From IMG/VR virus record IMGVR_UViG_3300042402_002841, positions 32,001 through 96,000 of that record: a stretch of DNA of 64,000 bases; one strand, given 5' to 3'. The position numbers and the translations under genes were made by a program. The notes under the pieces are model-generated. The model was not told the DNA's origin and made no database searches. It saw only the letters and a program-made list of their open reading frames with translations. This document shows positions 3,001-41,200 of the stretch, one piece after another. Positions within the stretch are counted from its first letter, which is position 1, and each line of letters starts with the position of its first letter. This stretch comes from a virus.

Positions 3001-5672
3001 TCTCCTGATTGTGAAGGACTCCTAAACGGGCTTGAATCAAAGTTTAAAAATATTCCGAAAGGACCCATTGACCACCCACCAGTTTCACCACTCCTAACAA
3101 GGGGTGACAAAACGGTAGGACCTAGTAATTTTTCTAACTCCCGTGCTTGCTCAATAGCATCAGGGTCTGTGCCAATGAAACCCGAAGAACCAAATGTTCT
3201 GATTTGCCAAGCGAATAATGGAGATGCGTCTAACGCTCTTTTCAAATACTCTCTTACCCTGTCAACACCTTTTGGTGAAAAATCAGGAAACAACATACCA
3301 TTAGGAGAACCATATCCAAGAAATTGTTCTTCAAAAATATCTTTCAATACAGCAAGTTGAGTAGGCGTGAATTGCGAAGCGTCTTGACCGTAAAGAAGGT
3401 TCATCAAGAAAAGATTGAAGGCATCAGTCTCGCTTCTTACGGAAAGAATGTCTGAAATCTCATCATTTGTTGCGTCTTTCAGATAATCACGACCACCTAT
3501 TGGGCTCAACTCTGATTCTGCGCTAAACAAGTTCGGTATTATTCTGTCGCCCGAACTGTCTCGTGGAATAGAGAATGACGCCAAGCCTGCCCGTGACTCG
3601 TCTATGCCACCTGCGATATCACGCTCATACGAGTACGGCTTACCGATAATGTCAAAAATGTCCTCCCGTAAGGCAGGGCTAACTTTGTCTCTGAAACTTG
3701 CGTCGTTAATAAGTATGCCCGAAACGCCCTCTGCGAACGCTTCTGCTGGCATTGTTTGACCGTATTGAGTCATTGCGTGTGGATAGCCGTTCCATCTTTG
3801 TTGTTTGCCGTCTGCGACTCTTTTGCCAAACTTTTTTGCGCCGATTAGGCGACTTGTGAACTTATCTTTTCCGACATCTACGCCTAAGTCGCCGAGAACT
3901 TTCCATACACCCGTGAGACCTGCGTCGTGTTCCCAAGTGTTTGAAAACCAGAATGTAGCAAGCCTTCTTACTTCTGGGTCTGGGTGATTGGTTATTGCGA
4001 GTCTATTTATGTAGTGCCCCCATTCGTGAGCAAGTAACGCATCTTCACGAGTGGACATCATAAACTGTTCGGTGTTTTTTAGTTTAGGAGAGTTAGGTTC
4101 TACGGCGTTTGTAATTCTGCCTGCGACAAGTTCTTGACGAACATCTTGGTTCACAATGATTGCTGGGAAGCCTTCTATCATTGACACTGCGTTAGTGTTG
4201 TCGCCGTCGTCCCATTCGGCACCACGCTTGGTAATCAGTAGCGGTGGAAATCCGTGACGCTCTACTGCTTCTCTAAATAGTCGGTTGTTTGCGAGAGCAC
4301 CCGTGAGTGCTTGGCGCATTTCTTCCACAATTACTGGAGAAAAGTCAAGCGCCTCAACGCCGTCTTTTATGACACTCTTTATTGCGTCTGGTCTAACGCT
4401 CTTGTCGTCATCATCAAATGCCATAAGTGCTTGGTGTTCTTCTAACGCAAGCATTGCTTCCGCTATGTTTGACGGCACAATAAGGCTCGCCATTTCTGCT
4501 GGCTCAAGCCCTCTCATACCACTACCCGTGGTGCTCTGGCGATTTCCACTAGACGACGCTAGACCGCCACTGCGAACGCCTAAGAATACGCTCTCCACCA
4601 TTTCAGCGCCTGCTGTATTCAGTAGTTCTCTAGTCTTTTTGTTTGGAGAGAAGTAGGCGGCGATTGACTCTCCTACAAACTCAACGGGTGAGGTCGTGCC
4701 ATAACCTGTCTTGACAAACGGTATGTCATCAGTTGGTGGGTCTATCTTGTCATCACTAATAGAAGCGTCTGCGAAGTATCTGTAAAAGTCTCGCAGACCA
4801 CCTGTACGAAGCGACTCCTCTGTTTGCCATTGTGGCGTAAGGTAAGACCACGAGTCGCCATACAGAAGGCTTGCTATCTGTCTTGTCTCTGCGTTGGGGT
4901 GATAGTCCGATGTGAGCCTATGTAGGTAGTGTCCCCATTCGTGCGTTACCGTATCCTCTGCGCTTTCACCTGTGACCCACCGCTTGACTCCCCTGATAGG
5001 CAGTGCGTTCATAGTGTTCATAAACCTATTGCCACCTACTGCGCCAATCAACTTTGACAGTTTCTTGTTTGTAGATTTTGAGTCAATAAGTATTGAGTCG
5101 GTCATAAAGATACCTGAGAAACTATTGTCACCTGTAACCATTGCTATTGGTGGCGCACCAAACCTGTCCCACGAAGCCCGTAAGGCAGGGCGGTCATCTA
5201 GCATTTTCTCAACTATCTGACGCAGTTCTTCAACATCATCAGCGTCAAACGATACGGCATCATAGAGGTCATCAATTCGCAGTTGTCCTCTACTGTGTTG
5301 TAGGCGTTGCTCTGTGAATGCGATTGGAGTATCAGGCACGACACGCTCTGCTACTTCTCTATTACTAAGACCTACTAGTTGTGACTTGCCATTAGAAAAG
5401 ATACCCGTGGCACCTCCTGCGCTTGCGAGTCCTCCTCTAATTGTTGAGGCAATGTTAGATAATACTGCTGGTCTCTCAAACGGAGTTGAGTCTTGTACGA
5501 GACCGTCACCGTCGCCGTCTTCAGCGTTCGGGTCATAAACCGCTGCGCCTCTTGCTAGTGAACCAATGTTTGCGCCTAGTGCTTTGTACTGTACGCCTTT
5601 GTCGTTATCTCTTGACGAACGACGACGCATACGACTTGATTCATCAGGATTGATTTCATACGAGAAAGGCAT
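1..5672 (-). CDS. Giant multidomain polyprotein (>1890 aa, C-terminus beyond the window edge): DGDGDG tag, three HExxH zincin metallopeptidase domains, an R-S-E ADP-ribosyltransferase-like domain and a Nudix hydrolase, separated by GLAS motifs
   Basis: Translated manually; absent from the ORF track because no in-frame stop occurs before the edge. ATG at 5672 (MPFSYEINPDESS..). HEWGH ~4929-4943, HEWGH ~4014-4028 and HEWAH ~2865-2879 are each followed by YG-x4-5-E-x3-E. ART-like LYR..TSFS..IEALTAGEF ~1520-1830. Nudix box GLQDENEDLYDTAEREMLEE ~877-936. Confidence 0.88.
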   Translation of the reverse strand, partial: MPFSYEINPDESSRMRRRSSRDNDKGVQYKALGANIGSLARGAAVYDPNAEDGDGDGLVQDSTPFERPAVLSNIASTIRGGLASAGGATGIFSNGKSQLVGLSNREVAERVVPDTPIAFTEQRLQHSRGQLRIDDLYDAVSFDADDVEELRQIVEKMLDDRPALRASWDRFGAPPIAMVTGDNSFSGIFMTDSILIDSKSTNKKLSKLIGAVGGNRFMNTMNALPIRGVKRWVTGESAEDTVTHEWGHYLHRLTSDYHPNAETRQIASLLYGDSWSYLTPQWQTEESLRTGGLRDFYRYFADASISDDKIDPPTDDIPFVKTGYGTTSPVEFVGESIAAYFSPNKKTRELLNTAGAEMVESVFLGVRSGGLASSSGNRQSTTGSGMRGLEPAEMASLIVPSNIAEAMLALEEHQALMAFDDDDKSVRPDAIKSVIKDGVEALDFSPVIVEEMRQALTGALANNRLFREAVERHGFPPLLITKRGAEWDDGDNTNAVSMIEGFPAIIVNQDVRQELVAGRITNAVEPNSPKLKNTEQFMMSTREDALLAHEWGHYINRLAITNHPDPEVRRLATFWFSNTWEHDAGLTGVWKVLGDLGVDVGKDKFTSRLIGAKKFGKRVADGKQQRWNGYPHAMTQYGQTMPAEAFAEGVSGILINDASFRDKVSPALREDIFDIIGKPYSYERDIAGGIDESRAGLASFSIPRDSSGDRIIPNLFSAESELSPIGGRDYLKDATNDEISDILSVRSETDAFNLFLMNLLYGQDASQFTPTQLAVLKDIFEEQFLGYGSPNGMLFPDFSPKGVDRVREYLKRALDASPLFAWQIRTFGSSGFIGTDPDAIEQARELEKLLGPTVLSPLVRSGETGGWSMGPFGIFLNFDSSPFRSPSQSGEVSPYLSMFETADNRIAYGVPEPGSTPYLLNVDLSPEGIIHHEWAHSFWSRVVGLSYAKKSGVLGSRADRMSYLFPGNPEAMNIGKFIKDSFDKTSFIPYSSAKSSGYIIANAKKQVQRTLGDKAAQDFEDMMNTYTATLIDRSSGRDRWRPSFGDDLLEEINTLYPFLTSDLLPLLRVQYGNFNRQEQFAELNVLFTTPNQNIRAQYLTPELEHAMAYVFGLKSSPDISPYQKPWEARQGLASSSAKKQIAISSVDKRVSSHKDSFPKAQRAHSQKDSVYVRDGLTTATIGDYTFSMNEKPLAMDKVYEQWVDGVENWRMRFISSQIMGIDGIDREDRDNSYGSDTNQYLLSGSVNSANEQSKEEVQRSTMFTISAMKEIAEGGYSSDAPLYRSVRNVDTGSGLFEPQIGSVISMPLTSFSPNYDDIVKYSKTDDLVSLPDAISSGLSSTKKNVVLKLREGVAVANAPVTKPAKDRDGRIVDMPIEALTAGEFTVKSVKTKNGLEVIELEQSRVIHPTLGSSFDGSDALVRKNKRNAVLTANMTESLNSVKQARQNLEQATTYGEKTRAIDDIAFETHRYSSITRQLRSDNDAIDKFDIPTRIGGLASSSRIEDRAKRHEVSLEAFNDESMDNDDIEWSTNEWSLSKTDKVMAGDVVVVRTRNDGKKEILTIERKRGPFRGALSLPGGLQDENEDLYDTAEREMLEEVNISPTDATDRRILGQIDARDWDPRFVEGGRVAGIRFDISDEQSSVVRAGDDASQFNWIDVEELSRGEYPIAFGHASWLAESFADDPVLGPRFAVLAEASRVRNQRLIKKIDAKRKEMGAKEFGEMPNPSEPYRTTTEGIRTGLVSASSFDRNIDIPLEIRDDFMKLVNESRDYLLVNPIRDDVYGQTIDLPWIDDFLERSKQLPVKMNHMELVGVYKAFTQIVDEHLNRDVDAGTAFARRTAIQNLRNLMKSGDEHHVRRYTVGGKPSWGAYRGRDYLGDYPTEELANQAV

Positions 5673-5678
5673 TGACTT

Positions 5679-5684
5679 ATTGTA
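5679..5684 (-). promoter_or_regulatory. -10 element (TACAAT) of a probable leaderless promoter for the polyprotein gene
   Basis: TACAAT lies 6 nt upstream of ATG 5672, with no Shine-Dalgarno sequence. Confidence 0.55.
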
Positions 5685-5912
5685 GAACACCTATCACGAT
5701 AGTGTATGAAGGTGTTACGAATGACTAGTGATTGTGTGTGTATTTGTTTGTGTGTGTGTTTTTGTTTGTGTCGTGAGCAGTGCCATACGAGCGTGTGCGG
5801 TTGCGATTACGAATCACTCTTAGCACATCTGTAATCGTTTGTCAAGTATTAGGTGAAACTATTTTTTGACCTCGTGAGCAGGTATCGTTATGCCACTGTC
5901 GTTGGCTTGACT

Positions 5913-5980
5913 TTATCCACAGACTTGTTCACAGCCTGTGGATAACTTTGTCCACACCCTTATACACAGCCTGTGGACAA
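5913..5980. promoter_or_regulatory. Cluster of six DnaA boxes (oriC/datA-like element)
   Basis: TTATCCACA 5913, TTGTTCACA 5925, TGTGGATAA 5937, TTGTCCACA 5948, TTATACACA 5960, TGTGGACAA 5972; 11-12 bp period in non-coding DNA. Confidence 0.8.
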
Positions 5981-6320
5981 CCACACTGAGTGGCTGGCGG
6001 TCACTGTCCGTAACCCACATCTCGGGGCTTTTTCTGGACACATAGGGCGCGCGTGGGGGGACCAGTACAGGTTTTTGAGGTTCCCTCATCATCAGAAAGA
6101 TTTATCTAAACCGCATGGGGTCTGGCGTGGTATTTAAGTCGTGTGTGCGGCGAGCGTGTATGACTCTCGTGTCGTAGTTGTTGTTCTCCACTACCGTATT
6201 CTTGCCGTTTTAGCGTACATGGTAGGGATTACAGGGCCGTTTATCCGTTTTCGCATTTTACAGGGACCCCCTAAAATACAAAATAGCGTTGTGTGGTGGT
6301 GGATAAATTTATCTAATGTG

Positions 6321-6349
6321 TTGTGAAAAAACATCATGAATGGTAGAGT
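6321..6349 (+). promoter_or_regulatory. Sigma70-type promoter, leaderless
   Basis: TTGTGA-17 nt-TAGAGT with a TG extension; ATG 6356 is 6 nt downstream. Confidence 0.55.
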
Positions 6350-6355
6350 ATGTGA

Positions 6356-7505: not shown

Positions 7506-7701
7506 TTACGATTTTGGCTCCACTGGAATCCAAATTAAAGGCGGAGATTCCTACCATGTTGTTAAAGTCTTCAACAAAGATGAGTGGCTTCTTCTTCGTA
7601 AGCGAGATGGGCAGTTCTATCAGGCTGCATCCTTTGTTTCCCCAGATGAGGCTCGTGCATTTATAAATGCATGCGATTTGACTCTGGATAAAATTAAATG
7701 A
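7489..7701 (+). CDS. Small hypothetical protein (likely start ATG 7498)
   Basis: Overlaps the upstream stop; coherent with the operon. Confidence 0.55.
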   Translation: MWKMADYDFGSTGIQIKGGDSYHVVKVFNKDEWLLLRKRDGQFYQAASFVSPDEARAFINACDLTLDKIK

Positions 7702-7761
7702 AATACGCTGTTTATGTGTATTCAAAAAAAAAAATCTTACAATAGATAAGGAAAATAAAAA

Positions 7762-8154: not shown

Positions 8155-8160
8155 AAACTG

Positions 8161-8247: not shown

Positions 8248-8251
8248 CATT

Positions 8252-8422: not shown

Positions 8423-8496
8423 TATTCTTGTAGACCTTGAGCCCGTAATCCAAATTTGGGTTTTGGGTACTTTAATATTCTATAAATACATGAAAT

Positions 8497-15439: not shown

Positions 15440-16798
15440 TTATGCCGATGGGGCAGCGTCAAAGTCAACTTTCACGAACGACTCTGGACGCTTCACTGCA
15501 AGTGCCAAGCGCTGCTCTGCGAGCACCACGATGGCGTTGCGTACGAAGAAGTCTGAGTGCTGTTCCGAAATGCGGATTGAAGCCTGCTCGCGGTCGTACA
15601 ACTGGGCACCTGTACCGAATGCGCCGACAAGTGCGGTGCCTTCTGGGATTGCAGGGGTCTCAACGACTGGCAAACGCCAAACCTTTGGCTCGCCACCCAT
15701 TGCAACTGAAACTGCAACGAGGTACTGGCCATTGCCATCCTTGGTCAACTCAATGTCTTCCCAGTCGTTCGGGTGCAACACGACGCCTGATGGCTCGTAG
15801 TAAGCAAGGAATGAAAGGGTTGCTGCACGGCGGATTGCGTCTGCCTTGGTGTCTGACATGCCTGCTGTTGGTGAGTAGAAACCATCTGACCATGCGTATT
15901 CCTGGATACCAGTGGTCTGAAGAACACCAGTCAAGTTTTCGCCTGTGCCGTCGCCGTTAAGGATTTGAGCATCTTCCTGAAGACGGAGACCGTACATCAG
16001 TTCGTTGTCAATGATTGAACGCAACTGTGGCTCGTCTGCGAGCACATTGCGGTGTGCTGCTTCCCAGTGAGCGATGGTGCGAACTGGAGCCTGGTGGCCT
16101 TCAAACACCATTGACGACTGTGGCTTAGCAGCGAATGCTGTATTGCCAGAGTTACGCTCAGCAACGGTACCTGCGTTGTTCGTGCCACCACCAGCAGTGG
16201 TGAAGCCGAGCATGCGGAAGTATTCAATAACTGCAGCGGTTGTCGTACGGGTTGGGAAAAGGTCACGGACTCGCTTCACACGCTGTGGTGGGATAACGAT
16301 TGGGTCACGCTGGATTGTTCCGAATTGTGCGTCTGCACCACGGCCCATTGTGCCTGATGGAAGGGCTGAGTAAACATCCTTCACATTAAATGCACCGTGT
16401 GTGGTGAGTGATGAGCCCAATTGGAATGGCGATGGCATGTTTGCACCATTGCGTCCACCTGCGAGGGCCTTGAATTCTGCTGAATCAAGGAACAATTGGC
16501 CGATTGAGTTTGAAGAACCAAGGCTCTTCACTGAGTATCCAGCGGCTGCTGCTGCTGCGATTGACTCTGCTGGTGCCTGTGAGCCCCAGTTGTCAACGGT
16601 GTTCATTGCCTCAAGACCCTCAATGAGGCCCTTGATTTCCTTGATGTCTTGCATGTTCTTGTCAAATGCGCTCTTTTGCTGAGCGTTGACAACAACAGTT
16701 CCATCTTCAATACGGAATGAGTCTGCAATTGCCTTGTTGTCGGCCATCTTGGCACGAAGGGCGGATTGCAATTCTGTAAGTCTTGCTTGGTCTGACAT
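15440..16798 (-). CDS. Major capsid protein, HK97 fold, with N-terminal delta/scaffold region
   Basis: Coiled-coil N-terminus; VRTIAHW..LADEPQLRSII..EDAQILNGDGTG; LHPNDW; FVRNAIVVLAEQRLALAVKRPESF. Confidence 0.95.
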   Translation of the reverse strand: MSDQARLTELQSALRAKMADNKAIADSFRIEDGTVVVNAQQKSAFDKNMQDIKEIKGLIEGLEAMNTVDNWGSQAPAESIAAAAAAGYSVKSLGSSNSIGQLFLDSAEFKALAGGRNGANMPSPFQLGSSLTTHGAFNVKDVYSALPSGTMGRGADAQFGTIQRDPIVIPPQRVKRVRDLFPTRTTTAAVIEYFRMLGFTTAGGGTNNAGTVAERNSGNTAFAAKPQSSMVFEGHQAPVRTIAHWEAAHRNVLADEPQLRSIIDNELMYGLRLQEDAQILNGDGTGENLTGVLQTTGIQEYAWSDGFYSPTAGMSDTKADAIRRAATLSFLAYYEPSGVVLHPNDWEDIELTKDGNGQYLVAVSVAMGGEPKVWRLPVVETPAIPEGTALVGAFGTGAQLYDREQASIRISEQHSDFFVRNAIVVLAEQRLALAVKRPESFVKVDFDAAPSA

Positions 16799-17000: not shown

Positions 17001-19385
17001 TTATTCTTCATCTTCAATTGCATCTAGTAATTCTTTTATTTCTTCCTCTGACATTTTTGCAATTTCTTCTAGAGTAAACCCCTCGTTTGTTAGTTTTGAA
17101 ATTTCCATTTCTGAAAATCCAATTTTTTTAGCAATTTCTTCTATTGTTACTTTGTCAGTTTCAATGCTAAATCTTCCAGATGTTAACTCTTCAAATCTTG
17201 ATTCACCATTTGGTCCGTCAATCGGCGCTTTGGCAAACAATTTTTCTAAAACTTTAGGGTCGCTTGACAAAACCAGTTGTCTTAAATTTTTTGTATATCT
17301 TTTATCTGTTATTTTCTTTTTGTCAACATCTACGCCAAGAATCCATAATATGTCACCAACAATAGGGATGCCAGGCTTTCCTAGCCTTGATTGATGTGTA
17401 TTTGTTCTACCAGATTTATACTTCATAAATGGCAAAACTTTTTCCTTAAAGAACTTTTGTATTTCGCTTCCTTCTGGAAAAGAAACCTTTATAACAGGAC
17501 CGTATTCAACTGTGAACCCAGCGTTTTCTAGTCCCTTATATGCTTCGGCACCTGTGTAGGTGGAGGCGAGACCGCTACGACTATTTCCGTTTGCTGTTTC
17601 AACCCATCTATCTGCCCATTTTTTACCACCAGCAAACTCTTCAAACTTTCTGCTGTCAAATACCTCAAAATCTTCATCTCTTACTTTTTTGGCAATAAGT
17701 TTTGGTGAAGAGCCTTCTGGTATATCGTTATCCCAGAGATAAAATTCATCAAGTAAATCTTCTTCAAAAGCAGAACTTATAATTCTTGGAAGTGTGGCAG
17801 CCATATGGGATGTGTTATCTGGTATGTATCTACCTGTTTCTTCTGTTCTTTTTCTTATTCTTTGTGAGGCAACTCTTTGTGGAACATGAACCCAATGACC
17901 TCTTACCGACTCGCCTCGCGACCTGGCTTCTCTCATATGTTGAATTTGACGACGCGCTCCAGCACCCATGATTACCATGTTTAAATTATCGGCTGCTGAG
18001 TCGGATATAACTTTGTCTGTAACTACCTGAGACTCCCTGTGTACGGCACCTGCGCCAGCACCATCGTTGTATCCAACAAGTCCTTTTTTAATAAAATCAG
18101 GGTCAATAACCGCCGCTTCTTCGGAAGAAGGAACTAAACCTTTAGGAACCAGGTGTCCATCAAAGACAGTGCTTTTACCAGAACCTGTGTTTCCACCAAT
18201 AATGTAGGTCACTCTCTGTTCGCTGCCATCATTCTTGGATTTAACCATGCTTCTGATAATTTTACCCATTGCTCTTCCACCTAGATTTCTAAATGGATTT
18301 GTTGGGCTTGCTTCTGGATTGTTTAGCCCATCAATGGTTACAGATTTTTGCGGTTTCGTCATTCGTTGTGGGCCTCTTCTTTGGCCTGCAACAGTTGTTC
18401 CAGTTCTTGATGCTAAGCCAGAAGCATTCCCAGGACCATCATATGCCCCAATTGGTTCTGCCCTAAAGTCATCAATTTCCGAAGGAGACATTGATGACAT
18501 CCACTTTCTAATGGCGGAAATTTCTGAATTATCAAATTCTCTGTCTTGCACTTTCGGTTGACCAGAGGGGGGCTTTGGCGCGCCAGGAACATTAGGTCTT
18601 TCAAATGGCGTTCCATCTTGCAGTAAGCCGTCTTCATCTCCGTCAAAAGCATTAGGGTCAAATCGTGCAGAAACAAATCTTGCGGTATTACGCAGTTTGG
18701 GGCCTAGAGATTTTCCAAGCAGTTCTTCTGGAATGCTTTTTTTTCTTCTTTTTAATTCTTCGCGAACAACAGTTCTTACAACAGTGTTTCTTTTTTTTCC
18801 TTGATTTAATCTGCCAAGTGCAGTCATTCCCGTAAGATTGTTGTAATCACTCAAGTTTGTGCATGGCATCCAAACGGTTTTGCCACCTTTTGACATCCTT
18901 CTGCTAACACCAATACATCCAAGTTGTCGTGACCTTTTGCGAGCAGATTCAATATCAACAAAAACATCTGGGTCATTGTCTCTAGGCATATAAGCAGGCT
19001 GAATGCTCTTTGTTGACATATTGGGAGGAGTAGTGTTCCCGTATGTCATTGGTGGAATACTTCCTCCGCTTATTGCGTTTGCAGATGTCCTTGAGTTCCC
19101 AGAAACAAGCCCACCGCCTTCAAGAGTGTCAATACCGAGAATTCTTCGTTCTCTTAATTTTTCCCATCTTTTTTTGCGCTTCTTGCCTTTTGCTTTTCTT
19201 GCCGAAGACCATTTTTGAACATCGTCAAGAGACATTCTTGACTTTATTTCATTTGTCAGAATTAAAAATTGCTTAGTTGAAGAGCATGGCATCCATTCTC
19301 CAGTAGGCAATCTATGGGCACCAAAACATCCAAGTTCAGCAGATGCTCTTACTGCTGCAATCTGTTTAGAAAGTTCGCTTTCCAT
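17001..19385 (-). CDS. Multidomain head-cluster protein: two LGCxG..WMPC motifs, DGDEDG tag, GLAS-flanked zeta-toxin-like P-loop kinase
   Basis: GGNTGSGKS Walker A, IDPDFIK, VHRES, RIRKRTEETGRYIP, LWDN. Confidence 0.8.
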   Translation of the reverse strand: MESELSKQIAAVRASAELGCFGAHRLPTGEWMPCSSTKQFLILTNEIKSRMSLDDVQKWSSARKAKGKKRKKRWEKLRERRILGIDTLEGGGLVSGNSRTSANAISGGSIPPMTYGNTTPPNMSTKSIQPAYMPRDNDPDVFVDIESARKRSRQLGCIGVSRRMSKGGKTVWMPCTNLSDYNNLTGMTALGRLNQGKKRNTVVRTVVREELKRRKKSIPEELLGKSLGPKLRNTARFVSARFDPNAFDGDEDGLLQDGTPFERPNVPGAPKPPSGQPKVQDREFDNSEISAIRKWMSSMSPSEIDDFRAEPIGAYDGPGNASGLASRTGTTVAGQRRGPQRMTKPQKSVTIDGLNNPEASPTNPFRNLGGRAMGKIIRSMVKSKNDGSEQRVTYIIGGNTGSGKSTVFDGHLVPKGLVPSSEEAAVIDPDFIKKGLVGYNDGAGAGAVHRESQVVTDKVISDSAADNLNMVIMGAGARRQIQHMREARSRGESVRGHWVHVPQRVASQRIRKRTEETGRYIPDNTSHMAATLPRIISSAFEEDLLDEFYLWDNDIPEGSSPKLIAKKVRDEDFEVFDSRKFEEFAGGKKWADRWVETANGNSRSGLASTYTGAEAYKGLENAGFTVEYGPVIKVSFPEGSEIQKFFKEKVLPFMKYKSGRTNTHQSRLGKPGIPIVGDILWILGVDVDKKKITDKRYTKNLRQLVLSSDPKVLEKLFAKAPIDGPNGESRFEELTSGRFSIETDKVTIEEIAKKIGFSEMEISKLTNEGFTLEEIAKMSEEEIKELLDAIEDEE

Positions 19386-22700: not shown

Positions 22701-23646
22701 TGTTGGCATCAGAAGGGCTAGATGTTACGGTTCTTTGGGCGTTCTGTCCTCTGGTTCTTTTCGCAGCACCTGCACCAGCCTCCCTCAGTACACTGCGAAC
22801 ATCAACACGACCACCAGTAGAGCGGTCATTTACGCCAGGAATAGCGGGTCTTTGGTATGGGGTTCCTTCTTGAACTAGGCCGTCACCGTCTCCGTCCCAT
22901 GCTTTGGGGTCAAAATTACCTGCCCTTCTTGCAAGCCTTGCAGCGCCACCAATTCTTTGGCCAATACCTTTTTGCTCAAGGGATTCTCCAAGGCTCTTCG
23001 TTTCAAGACCGTAGATAACTCCAATGTTTTTTCTTTCATCAGTTTGAATAATTGCGTTCTTTAACTTAATGCCCAATCTTCTTTCTGTTGAGCGACCTAA
23101 GTTGTTGTCAATTCTTTGTCTAAGTGATTTAATTTCCGCTTTTGAAGGCATTGAGTTATACATTGATTTTTCAAAGTTGAATGCGTAATTATTCGCTCTT
23201 GCCTCAAAAAGAAAACTACCTTCTTTGATTTGAGTTCTCATAGTAAGCGCCTTGTAATCAACTGCGCTTGAGTATTGAGTTGTTGTAAAATGACTTATCG
23301 GTGTGTCCATTACTGCTGGAACACGAGCACTATTATCTACTGAAAAAAAACCTTTATACAAATATGACTTTGATGAAAAAATGTCATTAGATGTAGATTC
23401 TTGATAACCAAGGGAATTAATTAAAGATTTTAATGAAATTTCGTTAATATTTTTAAATGGTCCTTGAATAACTCCAGCAGGAATTTGTGATGATTCAAGA
23501 CTTTTTGTATCAACAGAGTTTGCCCACTGTGCCCATTCTCTTCCAGCACCTTCAACTCCGTAGTGCCTAATGGACATACCATCTTTGACAACGATGGCAA
23601 ATTTTTCATTACGCAGAGCGTCAAATAGTATAGATACTTGTTTCAT
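19750..23646 (-). CDS. Multidomain protein: DGDGDG tag, GLAS motifs, ART-like region, C-terminal HipA/PI3-4K-like kinase domain
   Basis: GGSQPG..FYVK..ENEVL..LYERLGV..WLANWD..DNI..IIDTG kinase pattern; KRG..GAGEYWS..GYDGI ART-like pattern. Confidence 0.75.
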   Translation of the reverse strand: MKQVSILFDALRNEKFAIVVKDGMSIRHYGVEGAGREWAQWANSVDTKSLESSQIPAGVIQGPFKNINEISLKSLINSLGYQESTSNDIFSSKSYLYKGFFSVDNSARVPAVMDTPISHFTTTQYSSAVDYKALTMRTQIKEGSFLFEARANNYAFNFEKSMYNSMPSKAEIKSLRQRIDNNLGRSTERRLGIKLKNAIIQTDERKNIGVIYGLETKSLGESLEQKGIGQRIGGAARLARRAGNFDPKAWDGDGDGLVQEGTPYQRPAIPGVNDRSTGGRVDVRSVLREAGAGAAKRTRGQNAQRTVTSSPSDANRSGLASRTQANKEITDMVRDVLSKKSTSDDLRSLVNSRGSDGSTKLTKNQKDRINEHIDDFDNGEYENMEDFMSDVVNVLQNRPSGAKKPGQSGMRSRVSTARTQRQVDGLASRSSKAKKKSKLKGTPGRDRVDDKDGQLWESLTPEQKDVVEKNTKQAYQDLMEDIKKRNGDWWSSFLSQNTKQKKTAAIDADGKEWSQDSRIAGEALTSLTLAIEDASDDVRLEVSRLEGTLSSASPEEAPKIQKKIDKLKKDFEREQKALDDLRTFDQMQKSDDWSLLEHLHPETRQKSFGKKIPTAKKGNYEEVKQALPTGEPSTIFEEVGGAKRQKARLGKKADTKLADFARRITRPNPERAERRRLRKTGRGVAVEDIEEASDKASPLKRRIRRAKNQFLLNVKKRRDAEAIESKVNSTLNKNFHAFRKPDGSIVIDDKAVSILAGMSGKFKVSKRKGAKGEAVVTNEGAKKVLKGLWNGNAYNALPTWIREDEIPDLIEQGWIPIKRGFEKEAYADIWLNSPKRHVPGQGMAVVGAGEYWSYQDGGWESYFGGKDGKQADGVIGMVKKDRIATSAQANSFREHHRILNNAVDAYITGPGSGGRWDKELNAQELAQEIEETLSKMIPADSDVWNTEWGKLYQGVFSWMKTVGPKETAKKDQAIETLKFLNRMADADATVHAGFLGYDGIDFGFGDGRIVMHNRGAMVAVNQPMILADIKKVGKGERVKATDKKTKVKKSSRKGGGSSGSLDNKSWKQVGPQGGSQPGAEFEDPNGKKFYVKKQKSQLHAENEVLMSKLYERLGVRAAKNSGGTAHISGQSSGPGVFSEWLDGSRSVNHSAEVRNPKWKKSVQDTFVASAWLANWDGTGNGDNIKMGADGEAYIIDTGGAGLFRARGDSKGSAFGPIVGEMESLRAPGINSLGAMYFSDIPAQEIARQVASIGALSDADIRKMVNDVVTDSAEAKNLADTLIARRDYLVQTWGTGVKK

Positions 23647-25652
23647 TTTTTGGCTCCAAGAATGTCCATGAGTGTGTCTCTGCTGTCTGCGTATTTACGA
23701 ATTCTCATATCAAGAATTCTCCCAATAATATTTAAGTGGGCTTTTTCTGCGTCTGTTAATTTTCCATCGCTGTAAAGGCGATTTTTGAATTGTGTAAAAT
23801 TAAATTGTCTAGCCCTTAATAGTAGAGCGTCAATCTCTCTTCTAAAGGCAAATCTTTGCTCTTGTTTTAATTTTTGAAAATATGCGGCATATGTATCGCC
23901 GTTCGGTCCATCAAGAAATTCAGAAATTGCCAACTTTTGTCTCTCCACTATTTTTACATTGTCAAGGTCAGTAAGTCCAGATGTAAAGTTGTTGGTTACG
24001 ACTGGTTTTGTTTCCGAGCCATTAGAGAGTGAAATTATTGAACCTGGGTCTCTGACTCTTTGGTCCGTAAGCCAATCAGAAACAAGCATTTTTGCCACAT
24101 CTTGAGGTTTATAGTCTGACATGGTTTTTTTTCTATCAACATTAAAACCTCTAATAAGTGTTGACGGGTCCTCAACTAAATATTTTCTTTTTTCACCAGT
24201 TCCAACAAAAAAGACATCTGGAGAATCAAGACCAAGATGCTGCTGCATATCTGATGCAAACTTTTGTCCAATATGTTCATACTTCATGGCTGGTGTGTAA
24301 AGAGTAAAACGAGACTTTGAAGGTGTTTCAAGTATTTCTCTTCTATTGTCAAGTTTTTGTTTTTTAAATACATTTGCTTTAGTTATTGCCTGCTGGAGGA
24401 TTGCGGGGTCAATATCTGCCAACGAGCGACCAGCAGTAATGTGCTCAATTGCTTCCGCAATACTTGTAATTTCCTTGCCAATTGCAGAATCTGAATCTGT
24501 TTCTCTGTCTGCATTTGTTTTTGGCTTGGCTTTTCTTCCTTTCCCAAATAATTCATCAGCCCATTTTGGAATGGCTTTTCCGCCTGGTTTTGAAACAACA
24601 TCATTTGGATTTTTGATATTTGTAAAGTTTTCTGAGTACCCAATACCATCGCCAGTTTGAAGAACAACTTCTTTTAACCTTGCTGTTGGGTCTTTAGAAA
24701 TATCAATTTGTGCAGCAGAGTTTACTGTTCTTCCAAGTTTTCTTCTTTCACCAACTGTTAACTGTCTTTTTTTCTCAAGAGATAGCGTGGAGCCACCAGG
24801 TAAAACATATGTAAGTTTTGTTACTCCAGTATTTGAAAGAAGACCAAGTTCCTGACCTCCAAGTTGAGGTAAATCTTGAACAGTTAAGATAAAGTCGGCA
24901 CCTTCCATATCCCTGTTGTCTGGAATCGCTCTGAGAACTTGCGCTGGAACTACTGGTTCCAGAACAAAGCCGTCTCTTCTAACCATTCTTGTAATTGGTT
25001 CACTAACTTGACCCATTTGAGAAACAATATTTTTTGCTGCGCTTGCTTTCGCTGCTGGGTTTGGGTTTCCAACTCTTGGAATCTGCGGTCTTCTTGACTG
25101 CACTATTGACTCTGGCGCAGTTTCTCCCGTAATTGGCGTTGAAGCACCAGCAGTTACTGCACGAGCACCACGAGCAAGCCTTCTTAAAGCACCGATAGCG
25201 GCTCCGAGTGGCGAAGGAATGTCAAACAATTTTTGTCCACACGACGAATATCTACTATCAGTAAATCTTCCACCGTACTGATAACCCTCTGGACATCTGT
25301 GTGTTCTATTTGTCCCCCCAGTGCCGCCAGGAATTCTTGGTTTACCAGGAGTAATTGCGCCCCACAAACCAGAACGAATCGGACTTCTAATTGGACTCAG
25401 GTTTCCTGGTGTGGCAGCAGAAACAACAGATTGCGCCGCTTGTCCTATGGTGGAGTGGGTTCCAAGAAGACCAACTTTTACTTCATAATTTCTTGTTAAA
25501 CCTGAACGCTTTGCTAACGCTTTAAATTCAATAATGTTTTGATTTCCATTTAAGCGCATGCGGATTACAGGGTTTGCCCTTTGAGCACTTTTAGAAGATA
25601 GTAAAGTCACCCTTCTTCTAATAAAAGAAATTTCAGAACCGTTCAACAGCAT
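23643..25652 (-). CDS. Head-cluster protein with RCPxG..RFT..C tag and degenerate kinase-like C-terminus
   Basis: RCPEGYQYGGRFTDSRYSSC; LGLDSPDV..SDWLTDQRVRDPGSII resembles HipA-like DxxxxNxDR with altered catalytic residues. Confidence 0.65.
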   Translation of the reverse strand: MLLNGSEISFIRRRVTLLSSKSAQRANPVIRMRLNGNQNIIEFKALAKRSGLTRNYEVKVGLLGTHSTIGQAAQSVVSAATPGNLSPIRSPIRSGLWGAITPGKPRIPGGTGGTNRTHRCPEGYQYGGRFTDSRYSSCGQKLFDIPSPLGAAIGALRRLARGARAVTAGASTPITGETAPESIVQSRRPQIPRVGNPNPAAKASAAKNIVSQMGQVSEPITRMVRRDGFVLEPVVPAQVLRAIPDNRDMEGADFILTVQDLPQLGGQELGLLSNTGVTKLTYVLPGGSTLSLEKKRQLTVGERRKLGRTVNSAAQIDISKDPTARLKEVVLQTGDGIGYSENFTNIKNPNDVVSKPGGKAIPKWADELFGKGRKAKPKTNADRETDSDSAIGKEITSIAEAIEHITAGRSLADIDPAILQQAITKANVFKKQKLDNRREILETPSKSRFTLYTPAMKYEHIGQKFASDMQQHLGLDSPDVFFVGTGEKRKYLVEDPSTLIRGFNVDRKKTMSDYKPQDVAKMLVSDWLTDQRVRDPGSIISLSNGSETKPVVTNNFTSGLTDLDNVKIVERQKLAISEFLDGPNGDTYAAYFQKLKQEQRFAFRREIDALLLRARQFNFTQFKNRLYSDGKLTDAEKAHLNIIGRILDMRIRKYADSRDTLMDILGAKK

Positions 25653-31500: not shown

Positions 31501-33740
31501 GGTGCTCCAGGAACTATTAATGGACCCCAGTGAGGAGATGTTGAGCCAGGAATAATAAGCCCACTTGGTGAGGGCGGTACAGAATCTATTATTTCTATTT
31601 CTTTTTCTGGCAAGAAAGCGTCAAGGACTTCATCAACTTCTGGATTATCTCCTATTAATCCAACTTCTCTGTTTGCAACAAGTTCTGCGTGCGTTTCAAA
31701 AAACGCCAAATTTCTAGCCTGATTAAACGCACGAGGGTTTCTTGTGTCCGCAAGTACACCGAGAGCCTCTTGTTGCTTGACTTGAGAATATTGGCCTGCA
31801 AGAGCATCAAGTCTTCTATCAATTAAATCATTAAAACTTATTCCAAAAACTTGAGCAATGTTTTCATCAGAAGCAGTGTCAATAAATTCTTGCACTACAG
31901 ACATGAGTTCACTGTTAGTTAATGCGTCAAAGTTTTCATCAGGATAAGAAAGTTTGAACCATTCAAATACTGCGTCGTATTGTTTTTTGTGGGTCATTTC
32001 GTGTGCGCCAACTTGGGCACCAAAGTCTTCCCATCCGTTCCCAGCCTCAGCCGCAAGGTCTGTTGAATATGTTTCAACCCACCTTCTTGATTTTTCGTCA
32101 CCACTCATGGCTTCCGTGATTGCTCTCCATTGGTCATCAATGTCGCCACCAGTAGCCTCATAAAGGTCCATGTATCCAGGACCTGGACCTTCTCTGTACC
32201 CCTGTATTGCTGGACCAGAACCTATGTAGATATCTGTCGGGCGAGCGACACCGCCTAACCCTTCAAAATCAAAGTTGCTCCTCCCTTTACTATCAACAAA
32301 GTAACCGAAGTCAACATATATTTCAAAAGGCTTACCGTTTTCAGTTTTAAAAGTTTCTGGATTTTTTGATGCTTCAACAAGTATTTGTTTAAAAGCACCA
32401 ATTCTGAATTTTTTTTCTCTTTCAATTGCTGCGTCAATAAAATTTGTTATGGTGTCGGGTATTCCATCTCTCTTTGCTTCTTCATATGCTGCAATAATTG
32501 CATCTTTGTCTAGCAAGCCAGTTTTTCTTCTTATGGCATCAAGATGCATTTCTACCGTTGTATCAATTACCCACTTTTCATGTTCTTCTGGGGACCCGCC
32601 CATAAATAATTTTTCAAATTGACCAGGAAGAGATGGCGCATCTGGGTCTTCGCTTTGACCAGAACTAAATGGCGCATCTGGGTCTTCGCTCATCGCTCTA
32701 AAAATTTCACCTAAAGCAAGGTATTCGTCTGGCTCCGTAATGCCGTATTTTGTTTTTAAGTCGTTGATGACTTTGTTTTTTTCATCCCTAACCCTGTTCA
32801 TTCTTGCTTCTGCGCCTCTTGTTGCATCCATGACATCTCTCACTCTTGCAACCACGCTTGAAACATAGGAAGGGTCATCTTCTCCTGCGTCGCCAACTAG
32901 TCCTTCCCCTATTCCAGCCCTTGATGCAAGACTCCTCAAGCCATCAATACCGTTCTCCTTGTAGGCTTTTCTAATCTCATAAGCAGACACACCTATATTC
33001 ATAAGCGATTCTGTGACACGAGACCTATTGCCTGGAGCGCTCATGATATTGCTTAAAGAACTGGCAATGTTTTGTATTTGGCTCGCAGAAATACCAAAGC
33101 AACCCTCTCCTCTTTCGTTGGTAAACCTGTTTGCGGCAGGCGTTCCTGGTGGACACCTAAACTTACCGAGTGAGTCAATAACTAACCCCATGGCTCTTGC
33201 CGCTCTTGCCGCAAGTTTTCCTGCAGGGTTTCTTTCACCAATAGTTTTTCCCAAAGATTTTATTTCTGGCTCAAAACCCTGAGACTTCATTGGTTCTCCA
33301 GTTTTTGGATTTACTGGATATCTAGTAACTTTTGCTACTGCTGTTTTTGGTTTTGGAAGACTATTTGTTGGTGCATTGCGGTCCATCCAACCCCAGTTTG
33401 GTACTGGGTCTGGAGAACGAAGCGCTTCAATTCTTTCTGACTCTGTTACATAGTGTTTAAAATACTGACCTTCTTTTTTAGTTGCGTCAGGGTCATAAAC
33501 AACGCCATTAATATTTTTGTAATTTGTTCCCTTTTCTAGTCCACGCTTTTTTCCGTCAGTATTGGGACTAGTAGGCATGGCGACCTTGACTGATACATCG
33601 GCAATTAATCTCTCTGATGTAGAGATAATTTTATTGCCAGCCTTGAATGTCAATGCAGCAGCGTCTGCGTCAAGGCGTGTTGTTCTGCTATTGAACCCAG
33701 GTGCGTAATGGCGAATTTTATTGATGTTCACCCCCGTCAT
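28506..33740 (-). CDS. Giant multidomain protein: RCPxG tag, two HExxH metallopeptidase domains, DUF2510-like motif, GLAS motifs
   Basis: AHEMTH; RHELSH..SRYAMTKKSEYIAE; AGWSPDPSKPGQFRYFNGQVWTEH. Confidence 0.8.
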   Translation of the reverse strand: MTGVNINKIRHYAPGFNSRTTRLDADAAALTFKAGNKIISTSERLIADVSVKVAMPTSPNTDGKKRGLEKGTNYKNINGVVYDPDATKKEGQYFKHYVTESERIEALRSPDPVPNWGWMDRNAPTNSLPKPKTAVAKVTRYPVNPKTGEPMKSQGFEPEIKSLGKTIGERNPAGKLAARAARAMGLVIDSLGKFRCPPGTPAANRFTNERGEGCFGISASQIQNIASSLSNIMSAPGNRSRVTESLMNIGVSAYEIRKAYKENGIDGLRSLASRAGIGEGLVGDAGEDDPSYVSSVVARVRDVMDATRGAEARMNRVRDEKNKVINDLKTKYGITEPDEYLALGEIFRAMSEDPDAPFSSGQSEDPDAPSLPGQFEKLFMGGSPEEHEKWVIDTTVEMHLDAIRRKTGLLDKDAIIAAYEEAKRDGIPDTITNFIDAAIEREKKFRIGAFKQILVEASKNPETFKTENGKPFEIYVDFGYFVDSKGRSNFDFEGLGGVARPTDIYIGSGPAIQGYREGPGPGYMDLYEATGGDIDDQWRAITEAMSGDEKSRRWVETYSTDLAAEAGNGWEDFGAQVGAHEMTHKKQYDAVFEWFKLSYPDENFDALTNSELMSVVQEFIDTASDENIAQVFGISFNDLIDRRLDALAGQYSQVKQQEALGVLADTRNPRAFNQARNLAFFETHAELVANREVGLIGDNPEVDEVLDAFLPEKEIEIIDSVPPSPSGLIIPGSTSPHWGPLIVPGAPPVPDGDLIIPGRRPDAPIDSPKPVKPKRPITPGVLVEPTLPEGAGVIKTPRRPSAPTGRTPRGPVDPFEKDRHGKVPRMIKEERFTNQDIEEHLYGEDGKGGLWGMFRSARNMRIRKGHRLRDTQKKELLNNLVDTMGMSFEELEEIGQKAQRGENITPEEKRKLMSAITHLRNGANEFKIKSEEARRRYEERRQQGNTSTTDTYDDISEFRADLEQIQEEIEMYESLFQRVGRGFAPAVHDILTIVENGPYPDRLGASVGRNALRKSSQEARLSAEEIEAIDFVSDNPPISYLASRSAPDLEFELESNAEVLSAFRRHGITPPDSVTDSDIDSASPAMQALEKTVIEEDIVVEIEIDSIADTEPGSMYSIPSIQSAKIMGEEQDDRGGLASFTPSGSMTATAVGRMLGSRTGRKLIERVGVNPEQADVVQLIGEMAIGFSAGGPAGAIVPLARRGGRDAGEKALEVMVERGMIDQSVADKIIKHGLNRIASEGLPDEIIQAAEATRDRLLTEENRRKALEMGSAFQERSLELAEATREKVSELTESARGQAFEIAGSARERLRRRREGREKPDAVGPGASAGWSPDPSKPGQFRYFNGQVWTEHVSDSSGNQSVDNNPALANQPGWSEYQTGLLASRSGGSLNDPFAEETVPAAFSSPSISDPFEDYSPEAPSVPSVPYSDPFEDMFEESGRTGLASSSAARRSGKKITKKFRVDSKPREKPKTRQELISRAIPTNTSELLSILKESPFTQGKKSEQEILDLINIMEIDWEAQSRLNAKLDKTLNDSPGFEELLGEFDIPPMIVTKNGAAPGRFNREQMYQDPYRWESIEGEYFPEYGFLAFPPRVVNQEEVVSKAVDWPIPTDDILRHELSHTIHAMAMGKNRKARKKYEQDTAEQIDRLEEAISYAERNGIEKIDLINYSLSAEDQELAGEISRYAMTKKSEYIAELMTYMFPGKKTKFFMPKEEHFKMLSEFLDVPIEQLKQLHYKSSDIKFL
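32633..32690. repeat. In-frame direct repeat, 36-nt period (SEDPDAP x2)
   Basis: ATGGCGCATCTGGGTCTTCGCT at 32633 and 32669. Confidence 0.85.
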
Positions 33741-38200: not shown

Positions 38201-41200
38201 TGCAACCCTTGCACCACTCAGGTTGTACTTTTCAGCAATTTCTTTTGCTGACATTCCAGATAGAAAATCTCTAAAAATATCATTATCAGGAATTTGAGTA
38301 CCGTCTTCTGAAACGGTGCGAACTGGTCTTTGCAGGTTTCTTTCACCCCGTGTAGATGCTCTACTCTGTGAAGCCAATCCACCTCTACGGATATCATCTG
38401 GAACATATTGAGCAGGTTTTCCGCCTTCTCTAATAACACCACCGTCAGGAACGCCAGTTAGTTGTTCAATTTCATCATCGCTTAAACCAAGTTCTCTAAG
38501 TTTTTTGAAAACATTTTGGTCAAATTGCGCTCTTCTTTCGCGAGCCTCAGTTGGGTCAACATTTCCTCTTTCATCTCTCTGAATCTGACCATCTCGGCCA
38601 AGCATTGTGCCGTCTCCACGGCGAGATGTTGAAGCAAGACCTCCAGTAAGTGTCCGTTTTGCTCTTACTCTTTCTTGTAAGAATTCAGAATTTAGCCTTG
38701 CATCTTCAAGTTCATCCATAACCCCCTCATTTAGCCCGTTTTTAAAATAATCTTCCCAAAGCGAATTGATTTGTGGGTCGTTTGGATTTTCTTCAAATCC
38801 TTTTTTAGTTGCTCTTTGCAACTCTTTAGAAAAATCCTCTAAATCAATTGATGGGTCTAGTTCTATTATGTTTTCAACTTCAAACCAAAAATCCGCTTCG
38901 CTCATATCTGGCTCTCCGCTTTGAAGTGCCTGAATTAAATTTTCTTTTTTCTGAGACGATTCTTTTTTAGCGTCTTGAATTTCCTTATCAGTTGGTGGTT
39001 TGTTTGCCGACAGGCGACGAGCAGTTTTAAATACCGAATCTGACCATTCATCAACCGTTTCTTCAATCAGTTCATTAATTTTGTCTTCTTGTTTTCTAGA
39101 AGCGTTTTTAGGCATCATTCTTTCTGCAAGCATGCCTCTAACTGCGTCTGTTAAAGCCCTACCAACATCTTCGGATATATATCTATCAAAATTTCTTTCG
39201 CTGCTTTGCAGATTGAGATAATCATCAAAATCTCCGTTTTTTATTGCATCAAGGAAATTTTTTTTAGTTTCAGACAGCATTTCTTCGTCGTCATCAAGAT
39301 TTGAAATTATGTTTTTAAGTATGTCTGCATGTTTATCTGGGATACCGCTTCTATCAATAAATTTGTCCGACACGGGCTTTGAACCAGGACCGCTAACAAT
39401 TTCTCCCCTAAGAACTTCTGGTTTTTTTTCTACAGAAGTTGAAGCAAGTCCGCTTCTTCTCTTTTTTGCGAAGATGGATTCTGGATTCCATGAATCTGGG
39501 TTTTCCCAAGTTCTTTCGCTAAAAAAATCATAAACTTCGTCGTCAAATACTTTTTCTAAGCCCGCCTTACTGACAACCCCTTCATATTTTTCGTTAACCG
39601 CTACACCATATTGTTCTAGCAATCCAGCAAGAATATCTGAATCTTTTTCGGTGCCGTTTGCTAATTCAGTAAGTTTTTCTTTCATCTTTGTTTTGTCTTT
39701 AAGATTTAAGATGTCTAAAACTTCTTTTGAATTTTCTAAATCAAACTCTAAATCGTCTTGATAAAACTTACGAAGACCTTCAGCACTTTCAACGATGTCG
39801 TCAAGAAGTTTTTCATCAGAGCGAACAGCGTCAAGCATCGTTGTGCCCACTCTGCTTCCTGGTTCTCCCCCTGAATAATGAAAAAACGCTCTAGCCAACT
39901 CTTCGTTAGTTCTGTCTTCAAACCATTCTTCGTGGTCTTGTTCACGGGGGGTTAAACCTCTATATGAGGCTAGACCTTGTCTTTTTGGCTCTTTGGGAGT
40001 AGGGGTTTGTCTTCCTTGATTAAATGCACGAGTTGCTGCTTCAGCATCTACTCGGCCACCAGTGGACCTGTCGTTAACACCTGGGATTGCAGGGCGCTTA
40101 AATGGTGTTCCTTCTTGGACTACACCGTCTCCGTCACCATCCCATGCGTTTGGGTCAAACCTTGCCGCCCCTCTGGCGGCTCTGCCCAATTTTCCCAAGC
40201 CTCCGCTTAGCGTGCGCCCCAGGGCTTTTTCGGCCACGCTAATGGCCTCTATAAATTCGCTAGTGACACCAGATGTAACCACGATTCCGTCTTCTGTTAC
40301 ATGCGATTCAACTCTGTGGTAATCAAAAATTGGGTCAAGAAGTTGTTTTGTTTGAAAAGCGTTCTCAATAGGAACTGGGATTATATAGTCGCTCTTAACT
40401 TCAACATCTTTTTCTGCGGACGCAATTACTTCTTGCAGGTTTTCAAGAATGGCCTTGAGTCTTGACATGTTCTTACCACTAAGGGCACGCCCAACTTTTA
40501 CATCAAGTGAGTCAGAAATAATATTTGCTAGGTCTGCAAAATCTTCATCAAAAGACCATTTTTCGTCATTCTCGTAAGACTTTGGCATAATTATGCCATT
40601 CTCACCCATGTCGTCGCCCATATAGGCATTTCCTTGAGGTTTTACCTGCATTGGCATTGAAGGCATTTGTGAAGGAACAACGACTCGTGAGCCAGATTCT
40701 TCCGAAGATGGCATGTAAACGGTTTGCACAGAAACCTTTTCTGGCTTACCAAACATGAACTCTCTACCTGTGTAGTGGTACGCAACTCTGTAGGTTGTAG
40801 GCGCACCGTCTGGTGTCATTCTGTCAAAAATTACTGTATTTTCTTCTGCGAGACGAACTTTTACTGGAGCACCAGCACGGACAGCCAATTCAATCTCTAA
40901 TTGATTCTTGCGCTCATCTCCCACTCTTGGCTTATTTGCTTCAAGAATGTTAGGGGTTGGCCTTTGGTGTCTGTGCGGTATTCCACGGTTGCTTTGCAAC
41001 ATCAACATTCCGCCCTTGGAATCATCAATCATGGTTGAATCATCTGACTTTACTGAAATTGTTCCAGTCAACTGGTTGGCACCATGTAGAACTGGCGAAA
41101 CTTCGTAAAGTTCTACTTCTTTTAAGATGTTGGCCTGAAGATTGGGGTCAAAAATTGAATCAAGAGTCTTATAGCCGATTGACCATTCTTGTTCTTGTCC

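Follow-up and report, generated by a model that had tools for sequence, protein, structure and literature searches.

A portable TSP3-like DxDxDG module in four giant proteins of an uncultured phage, a candidate address for proteins carried in the virion

The IMG/VR virus record IMGVR_UViG_3300042402_002841 is a linear sequence of 132,392 bp (GC content 42%; completeness 88% by CheckV estimate). The stretch considered here, referred to as the window, comprises bases 32001-96000 of that record, 64,000 nucleotides in all. Four open reading frames (ORFs) of the window, P1 to P4, all on the minus strand, encode giant proteins that each carry one copy of a short tag built around a DxDxDG loop. P4, P3 and P2 belong to a head gene block in which the order is portal protein, P4, a scaffold-like protein of 484 aa, proteins of 1744, 616, 198 and 669 aa, P3, P2 and the major capsid protein; P1 lies about 10 kb past the capsid gene, and a divergent large terminase gene adjoins the portal gene. 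Coordinates are given in Table 1.

Written as the pattern DP.A.DG[DE].DG..Q..TP...P, with a dot for any residue, the tag has four matches in the six reading frames of the entire 132,392-bp genome, all on the minus strand and one in each of P1 to P4. The full pattern does not occur in any of 100 trinucleotide-block shuffles of the window; the loose core D.D.DG..[QE] is observed four times against a mean of 0.02 per shuffle. A preliminary description of the window had listed four copies, and these four are real and the only ones in the genome. The same four, and nothing else in the genome, are matched by the profile phrog_7924, a 112-position family of small proteins of unknown function in which positions ~80-108 correspond to the tag; these matches are weak (E-values of 1.4e-4 to 4.9e-3 per protein). 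The phrog_7924 profile also matches tag proteins of other lineages, and at E <= 1 it finds something in 2 of 14 control genomes.

Table 1. Tag copies, modules, host proteins and other head genes of the window. Positions count from the first letter of the window, residues from the start of the protein named; pattern refers to the expression given in the text.
Feature	Position in window	Strand	Residues, domains and motifs
Portal protein (PF04860)	41663-43708	minus	First gene of the head block
P4, 2089 aa	35282-41551	minus	N-terminal Peptidase_S78, tag, cargo region with 9 strict GLAS
Peptidase_S78 prohead protease domain of P4	41057-41488	minus	Residues 22-165; Pfam, E 3.3e-10
Module of P4	39965-40228	minus	K442-ALG to first GLAS (526-529)
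Tag copy 4	40091-40159 (pattern 40091-40156)	minus	P4 residues 465-487; FDPNAWDGDGDGVVQEGTPFKRP, then AIPGVNDRSTGGRVD; pattern, phrog_7924 profile
Scaffold-like protein, 484 aa	33758-35212	minus	Cys-rich N-terminal stretch, long poly-Asp/Glu tracts
Polyprotein, 1744 aa	28506-33740	minus	K161-SLG, Arg-rich stretch, 2 GLAS, two HExxH, RCPPG...C motif
RCPxG motif, 1744-aa protein	33144-33158	minus
RCPxG motif, 669-aa protein	25284-25298	minus
P3, 1298 aa	19750-23646	minus	No Pfam family; C-terminal domain common to several cultured phages
C-terminal domain of P3	19750-20450	minus	Residues ~1062-1298
Module of P3	22684-22998	minus	K217-SLG (and K226-GIG) to first GLAS (318-321)
Tag copy 3	22846-22914 (pattern 22846-22911)	minus	P3 residues 245-267; FDPKAWDGDGDGLVQEGTPYQRP, then AIPGVNDRSTGGRVD; pattern, phrog_7924 profile
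P2, 794 aa	17001-19385	minus	Two DUF3721, tag, then Zeta_toxin-like P-loop kinase domain
Module of P2	18408-18713	minus	K225-SLG to first GLAS (323-326)
Tag copy 2	18594-18662 (pattern 18594-18659)	minus	P2 residues 242-264; FDPNAFDGDEDGLLQDGTPFERP; pattern, phrog_7924 profile
HK97-fold major capsid protein (PF05065)	15440-16798	minus	K91-SLG at 16517-16528
P1, 3112-aa polyprotein (first 1896 aa in window)	3-5690	minus	NUDIX, DUF3626, three HEW[GA]H, 10 strict GLAS
Module of P1	5421-5585	minus	K36-ALG, Gly/Arg-rich stretch, tag, to first GLAS (87-90)
Tag copy 1	5469-5537 (pattern 5469-5534)	minus	P1 residues 52-74; YDPNAEDGDGDGLVQDSTPFERP; pattern, phrog_7924 profile

Around the tag as its core extends a portable module of about 50-100 residues. 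Its parts are, in order, a K-[SA]-L-G site, a basic stretch rich in Gly and Arg (for example GKLGRAARGAARF), the sequence [FY]DPxAxDGDGDG[LIV][VIL]Q[ED] and a fixed extension xTP[FY]xRP. In P1 to P4 the K-[SA]-L-G site precedes the tag by 17-29 residues, and the first strict GLAS follows it 13 to 58 residues downstream. The preliminary description had placed each tag after a K-[SAG]-[LI]-G site and before the first GLAS, which is so for strict GLAS at the residues listed in Table 1; P2 also has a GLVS at residue 92, upstream of the tag. In an all-against-all BLASTP comparison of the four hosts, similarity is confined to residues 33-102 of P1, 197-275 of P2, 194-321 of P3 and 438-529 of P4, with none outside the module at E <= 0.01; the hosts are otherwise unrelated, as first described. 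P3 and P4, and only these, also share AIPGVNDRSTGGRVD after the tag, which had been noticed as well. Between paralogues the 24-aa core has a nucleotide identity of 65-75% and a residue identity of 62-83%, and any pair of copies uses the same codon at 7-9 of its 15-20 identical residues. Because about half of the identical residues use different codons, the copies are old and not recent DNA duplicates. The core appears to be under strong purifying selection.

Searches with the tag reach a large family, whose loci in IMG/VR and whose proteins are numbered below with L and P0, respectively. A profile of the four window modules retrieves 221 proteins out of 8000 scored candidates, and a search of IMG/VR gives 313 candidate stretches, 208 of them confirmed, from which 80 loci were kept. 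These 80 loci all belong to one phage lineage and show the same gene order wherever the contig reaches, with the position of the tag conserved in the orthologues of P4, P3, P2 and P1. An exhaustive HMMER search, for which the query was an alignment of 47 tags with invariant D, D, D, G and Q, finds 839 tag-carrying representative clusters at E <= 1e-3 and 187 at E <= 1e-10. Among the 122 new representatives listed, 45 have no similarity to window proteins outside the tag; others have a single cargo domain in common with window proteins, differently arranged. The domains fused to the tag are varied and include ART-PolyVal (four copies in P0239), PI3_PI4_kinase with HipA_2, PG_binding_1, DUF7178, Zeta_toxin, NUDIX-like and S78 domains. 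In the wider family the core reads DGDGDG-h-h-[QYH]-[DE]-G-T-x-x-E-R-[PV], and the FDP part is variable.

Position statistics cover 313 tag instances in 242 family proteins. A single tag is present in 182 of these proteins, two in 55, three in three, four in one and eight in one, so that 60 of the 242 have at least two; the protein with eight copies, P0124, is a true Excalibur protein and a marginal relative of the tag family. A second phage lineage (L095-L130 and L004) encodes, directly after the capsid gene, a protein of ~150-170 aa with an acidic linker and zero, one or two N-terminal tags; since orthologues of this small protein differ in tag number, the tag has been gained, lost and duplicated as a unit. 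A family of 1110-1168 aa with tags at residues 25 and ~300 has no locus in the IMG/VR scans. A 'LysM-like' domain seen by eye on small tag proteins (L145, L146, L154 and L155) was dropped, having no Pfam match at E <= 0.01, and an ESM Atlas look-up of the double-tag protein P0139 gives only unnamed viral clusters with scores under 0.9.

As far as sampled, the tag appears to be restricted to viruses. One genome for each of 185,579 prokaryote species was scanned with exact patterns, by which divergent copies may be missed; 66 stretches matched, four were confirmed by tblastn and one has the full tag. This sole full cellular tag lies in a P2-like gene on a 7-kb contig of a metagenome-assembled genome assigned to the Acidimicrobiia. 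Two cellular giant proteins matched by the pattern scan are TSP3_bac arrays, in which the D-P-x3-DxDxDG spacing is ordinary. Among cultured phages, tblastn of the 85-aa module and of P0139 against 50,697 deposited phage records gives no match; as the BLAST low-complexity filter may mask DGDGDG, this null result is weak evidence that cultured phages lack the tag. The tag is also absent from the stretches examined of Gordonia phage GMA6, a relative by its capsid protein, and of Actinomycetia phage DSL-LC01.

A common partner would be indicated by concerted evolution of paralogous tags in the same genome, and the signal of this is only weak. P3 and P4 taken from one genome share 57% identity downstream of the core, vs. 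47% when taken from different genomes, and other pairs show no difference. In one sub-clade IPGxNTNLPG follows the tags of P2, P3 and P4, and in the sub-clade of the window IPGVNDRSTGG follows those of P3 and P4; apart from these sub-clade tails each paralogue keeps its own flavour across genomes.

The K-SLG and GLAS motifs that bound the module are candidate cleavage sites. A K[SAG][LIM]G site is present within 40 residues upstream of 150 internal tags out of 251; when positions are drawn at random from these proteins the count is 140 out of 5020, so that the site is enriched 20-fold. The distance from site to tag is 14-31 residues, with modes at 18, 21-22 and 25. In 62 of the 313 instances (about a fifth) the first Asp of the tag is instead within 40 residues of the protein start, and about fifty distinct natural N-termini starting with Met near the tag are found among those listed. 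The tag therefore tends to sit some 5-35 residues from an N-terminus, either natural or one that cleavage at K|SLG would create. A similar sequence in HK97 is K-SLGSD of the capsid protein gp5, in which K-S-L-G occupies residues 103-106 and the serine is residue 104; this serine we take to be the mature N-terminus, made when gp4, a protease of the same family as that of P4 (Peptidase_S78), cuts between K103 and S104. The capsid protein of the window has K91-SLG after the Ala-rich end of its N-terminal region. Unlike in HK97, K-SLG in the window precedes cargo modules as well as occurring in the capsid protein.

GLAS has the form R-x-G-L-A-S-[STR] and is concentrated in the giant proteins: 25 strict copies are found in 9037 aa of five polyproteins vs. 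four in 23,149 aa of other ORFs, with a mean of 0.34 in residue shuffles. The motif splits the five giant proteins into segments of roughly 30-430 residues, in the manner of polyprotein cleavage sites, and related sub-clades have GMAS or GFAS where the lineage of the window has GLAS. The cargo region of P4 also contains GLES and GMVS variants, together with weak matches to helix-turn-helix motifs of the sigma-70 region-4 type.

The first two-thirds of the tag resembles a single bacterial TSP3 repeat, and the tag as a whole is best described as one TSP3-like DxDxDG loop with an invariant extension of its own. In hhalign the tag profile matches 15 TSP3_bac repeats of L093 with a probability of 86% (E 4.8e-6) over only 16 columns, and the bacterial TSP3 repeat (PF18884; DPxxxDTDGDGLxDxxE) has the same D-P-x3-D-x-D-x-D-G-hydrophobic motif. 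The DxDxDG part, which the preliminary description had related to Ca-binding loops, is similar at the profile level to a known calcium-binding repeat, and the loop of the tag may bind Ca2+. The two differ in that TSP3 repeats form tandem arrays in large cellular surface proteins, whereas the tag occurs once per window protein, mostly singly in the family and on viral contigs, and in that TSP3 has D-x-x-E where the tag has its invariant Q-[ED]-x-T-P-[FY]-x-R-P. Pfam hmmscan of P1 to P4 gives no family over the tag, and no TSP3_bac, at E <= 0.01. Other DxDxDG calcium loops are those of EF-hands and of the Excalibur family (PF05901), the motif of which is DxDxDGxxCE. The tag is likewise acidic at loop position 10, and the repeats of P0124 read RDGDxDGVVCEE; the tag differs in having Q in place of the Excalibur Cys, and Excalibur has no Pfam match on window proteins.

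Other features of these proteins and of their neighbours can be noted briefly. The GTG start listed for P1 at 5690 is probably wrong, as orthologues begin with MPFSY, corresponding to the ATG at 5672, six codons downstream. Each HEW[GA]H motif of P1 sits in a GLAS-bounded segment; the HExxH motifs of P1 and of the 1744-aa protein suggest repeated zincin-like peptidase domains, and no Pfam family covers these regions at E <= 0.01. The DUF3721 copies of P2 (residues 10-36 and about 160-190) are small Cys/Trp motif domains upstream of K-SLG, and both fall in the part that K-SLG cleavage would remove. A domain with 31-38% identity to the C-terminal domain of P3 is present in 20 deposited records, which come from Pseudomonas, Aeromonas, Escherichia, Yersinia, Morganella and Gordonia phages and Actinomycetia phage DSL-LC01. 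In some of these deposits the domain is annotated as an ADP-ribosyltransferase, and none of the inspected records that share it has the tag.

The scaffold-like protein has the C-terminal motif ..GRAKDKEAAKKHI.KRAKALG..LIPA.W, which contains K-A-L-G, is almost identical in Orf19 of Gordonia phage GMA6 and matches the C-terminus of phrog_80 (head maturation protease). The 1744-aa and 669-aa proteins, both without the tag, have in common the motif RCPxG...(G)RFT...C(G/F), and their Arg-rich stretch (LAARAARA / LRRLARGARA) resembles that preceding the tag; the RCPxG proteins may carry another form of this type of module. Gordonia and Brevibacterium phages of about 83-93 kb (GMA6, Cantare and DalanDe) have capsid proteins with 46-48% identity to that of the window, and these relatives, together with the tag contig binned to the Acidimicrobiia, hint at an actinobacterial host.

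The capsid-targeting sequence (CTS) of T4 has about 10 residues and no known metal-binding motif. The tag is likened to it by position and context only. The tag is a module of at least 23 aa with a DxDxDG loop; it belongs to heads of the HK97/S78 type and not of the T4 type, and it can recur in one polyprotein and also stand at the C-termini of small proteins. CTS function has been shown experimentally, while the role of the tag is predicted. Like the tag, the CTS is a short conserved element on otherwise diverse proteins. It lies at or near the N-terminus of proteins carried in the head and beside a head-protease site, as the tag would on predicted head cargo if its K-SLG site is cut; passages of the T4 account (PMC3012670) describe the internal proteins as highly diverse defence proteins in which only the CTS is conserved and directs encapsidation into the scaffolding core. 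A short common address on diverse packaged proteins is thus known from T4, and the tag would be an example of an unrelated sequence class, in another head lineage and with a metal loop.

The giant proteins also resemble polyvalent proteins, which parts of Iyer et al. (2017; PMC5512222) describe as giant multi-domain effectors whose genes lie among those for late or virion functions, and for which packaging and processing are predicted. They typically contain Zeta-toxin-like kinase and metallopeptidase-type HExxH modules, and the elements named there for packaging and processing are MuF, portal fusions and MPTase domains; the terms 'EF-hand', 'Ca2+' and 'calcium' do not occur in the main text of that paper. 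P1, P2 and P4 have several effector-type domains and genes that lie between or beside the portal and capsid genes, and no MPTase-PolyVal, ART-PolyVal or LPD family is found on P1 to P4 in Pfam at E <= 0.01. No published description of the tag was found in the literature on phage DxDxDG/DGDGDG motifs, polyvalent proteins and prohead protease cleavage.

The reading preferred here, at a probability of roughly 0.45, takes the module for a portable address or anchor on proteins that would travel as cargo in the phage particle. This reading is favoured because of the gene context of the tag, its portability, its relation to N-termini, the protease-like sites that flank it and the strong purifying selection on its core; both the packaging of P1 to P4 and the role of the module are deduced from sequence. 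The giant proteins would be polyproteins of effector-like domains, that is, polyvalent proteins, built into the procapsid with the S78 protease, which would itself enter as the N-terminus of one of them, P4. The module would serve as the common address or anchor that retains these proteins in the assembling head. A cut at K|SLG would expose a new N-terminus at which the module lies, and cuts at RxGLAS would release the cargo domains. The acidic loop would take up Ca2+ outside the cell and be without it in the cytoplasm, which is poor in Ca. A bolder version is quite unlikely: that the module is a calcium-switched N-terminal address for cargo of HK97-fold heads, a counterpart in the S78/HK97 lineage of the T4 CTS and of encapsulin cargo-loading peptides, which would dock polyvalent effectors and small wall-binding proteins in the procapsid or at the portal and neck, latched in Ca-rich water and released in the Ca-poor cytoplasm or on passing the neck.

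Several observations weigh against an address or anchor. The binding partner of the module is missing. The 1744-aa polyprotein of the head block lacks the tag, so if this protein is packaged the tag is not required for packaging. For 101 of 251 internal tags (40%), the 40 residues upstream contain no K[SAG][LIM]G; the K-SLG of the capsid protein is loosely kept in orthologues (KSLG, KGLG, KSVY and KGLD) and absent in more distant ones, and a MAFFT alignment does not place K91-SLG in the same column as HK97 K103-S104. The K|SLG and GLAS cleavages are predicted from motifs alone, and, because Pfam lists no family over the tag, calcium binding is claimed from motif and profile resemblance. Modelled by itself with AlphaFold2, the module is almost all coil, with a mean predicted local distance difference test score (pLDDT) of 55.3. 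A complex prediction for capsid protein and module scored 0.00 in both runs, which had no controls, and counts neither for nor against binding.

The gene settings of the tag in other lineages also count against a purely capsid-interior address. In a third lineage a 122-aa protein with a C-terminal tag is encoded between adaptor/Neck1 genes and those for the tail sheath and tube. A fourth lineage has, between terminase and portal, a gene for a PG_binding_1 protein that carries two tags at its N-terminus, beside an SLT_3/SLT lysozyme-like gene and a small membrane protein. In the second to fourth lineages tag genes are in or near virion gene blocks, and not all of the products are obviously inside the capsid. 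A calcium-binding element of general use outside the cytoplasm would account for the neck-module and PG_binding_1 settings no less well than a capsid address would. The capsid-targeting or docking tag proposed in the preliminary description is therefore partly supported: it agrees with the portability of the tag, its restriction to viruses as far as sampled, its occurrence in virion-morphogenesis gene blocks, the adjoining HK97-like site and the profile similarity of its loop to a calcium-binding repeat, and leaves the neck-module and PG_binding_1 cases unexplained if the address is to the capsid interior only.

Somewhat unlikely is that the tag is a general extracytoplasmic calcium clamp, one loop of the TSP3 or Excalibur type with no addressing role. 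Such a clamp would bind Ca2+ only outside the cytoplasm, either in free virions or, once ejection or lysis has occurred, in the periplasm, and would stiffen or switch a flexible segment; the tag would then recur for its benefit to phage proteins active outside the cytoplasm, and not for docking to a common receptor. The profile resemblance to TSP3_bac repeats, the eightfold Excalibur protein among the weaker matches of the exhaustive search, the PG_binding_1 fusions (P0208 and L135, in the latter beside the SLT_3/SLT gene and the small membrane protein), the tags at the N- or C-termini of small head- or neck-module proteins with long acidic linkers and, for one of these proteins, zero to two copies in orthologues, and a module that models as coil without ion are all as a clamp would have it. 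It leaves unexplained why each giant protein has exactly one copy, near the front after K-SLG, in all 80 related loci, why K[SAG][LIM]G is 20-fold enriched upstream of internal tags, and why the non-loop extension Q-[ED]-x-T-x-x-x-R-P is invariant; moreover, a structural clamp is expected in folded domains or arrays, not alone in a disordered basic segment. The enrichment and limited distance range of K[SAG][LIM]G would instead suit an exosite at which the S78 prohead protease is recruited for a K-SLG cut 14-31 residues upstream, the tag setting the opening point and not the destination. The protease is indeed fused upstream of the tag in P4, and K-SLG resembles what we assume to be the start of mature HK97 gp5. 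An exosite is nevertheless improbable, since the fifth of tags at natural N-termini have nothing upstream to cut and two-fifths of internal tags have no site, K-SLG occurs in two proteins that lack a tag, the capsid protein and the 1744-aa protein, the small tag-bearing neck-module and PG_binding_1 proteins are not obvious protease substrates, and the spacing is variable.

Least credible is a Ca2+-triggered Asp-Pro self-cleavage ('clip-and-link'), in which the freed Asp could cross-link to a nearby lysine. The account of FrpC in parts of PMC7078468 places the scissile bond at D414-P415, followed by D419, D421, D423 and G424, in a module of 177 residues with four Ca sites, and the tag, with D-P-x3-D-x-D-x-D-G, has identical spacing. 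This spacing is, however, the one that is ordinary in TSP3_bac repeats; the Asp-Pro of the tag is not conserved (FNP, FDA, FDQ, YKAD and KALPR occur) while DGDGDG..Q.GT..ER[PV] persists, conservation stops 25-50 residues after D-P with no fold predicted (pLDDT 55), and only two designed repeat proteins, but no FrpC, were retrieved when the profile was run against all PDB sequences at E <= 10. As a general mechanism it was rejected for the unconserved Asp-Pro, the lack of a 177-residue module and the absence of FrpC from the PDB profile search.

To our knowledge, apart from T4, P22 and the phiKZ group, little is understood of how tailed phages with HK97-type heads select the proteins that are packed beside their DNA. 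As a portable address or anchor, the tag would be a label that marks hundreds of different cargo-like proteins, the protease polyprotein included. It shows which proteins to seek in virions and offers a peptide for reporter fusion, and the K|SLG and RxGLAS sites can be checked by proteomics; as a family-level feature absent from Pfam, it is useful for annotating polyvalent effectors in metagenomic phages. Were the calcium-switched address true, one peptide of 25-40 residues would be a general loading handle for foreign proteins in a large group of uncultured phages, and if the loop is an inside/outside switch, it would give virions a novel means of sensing where they are.

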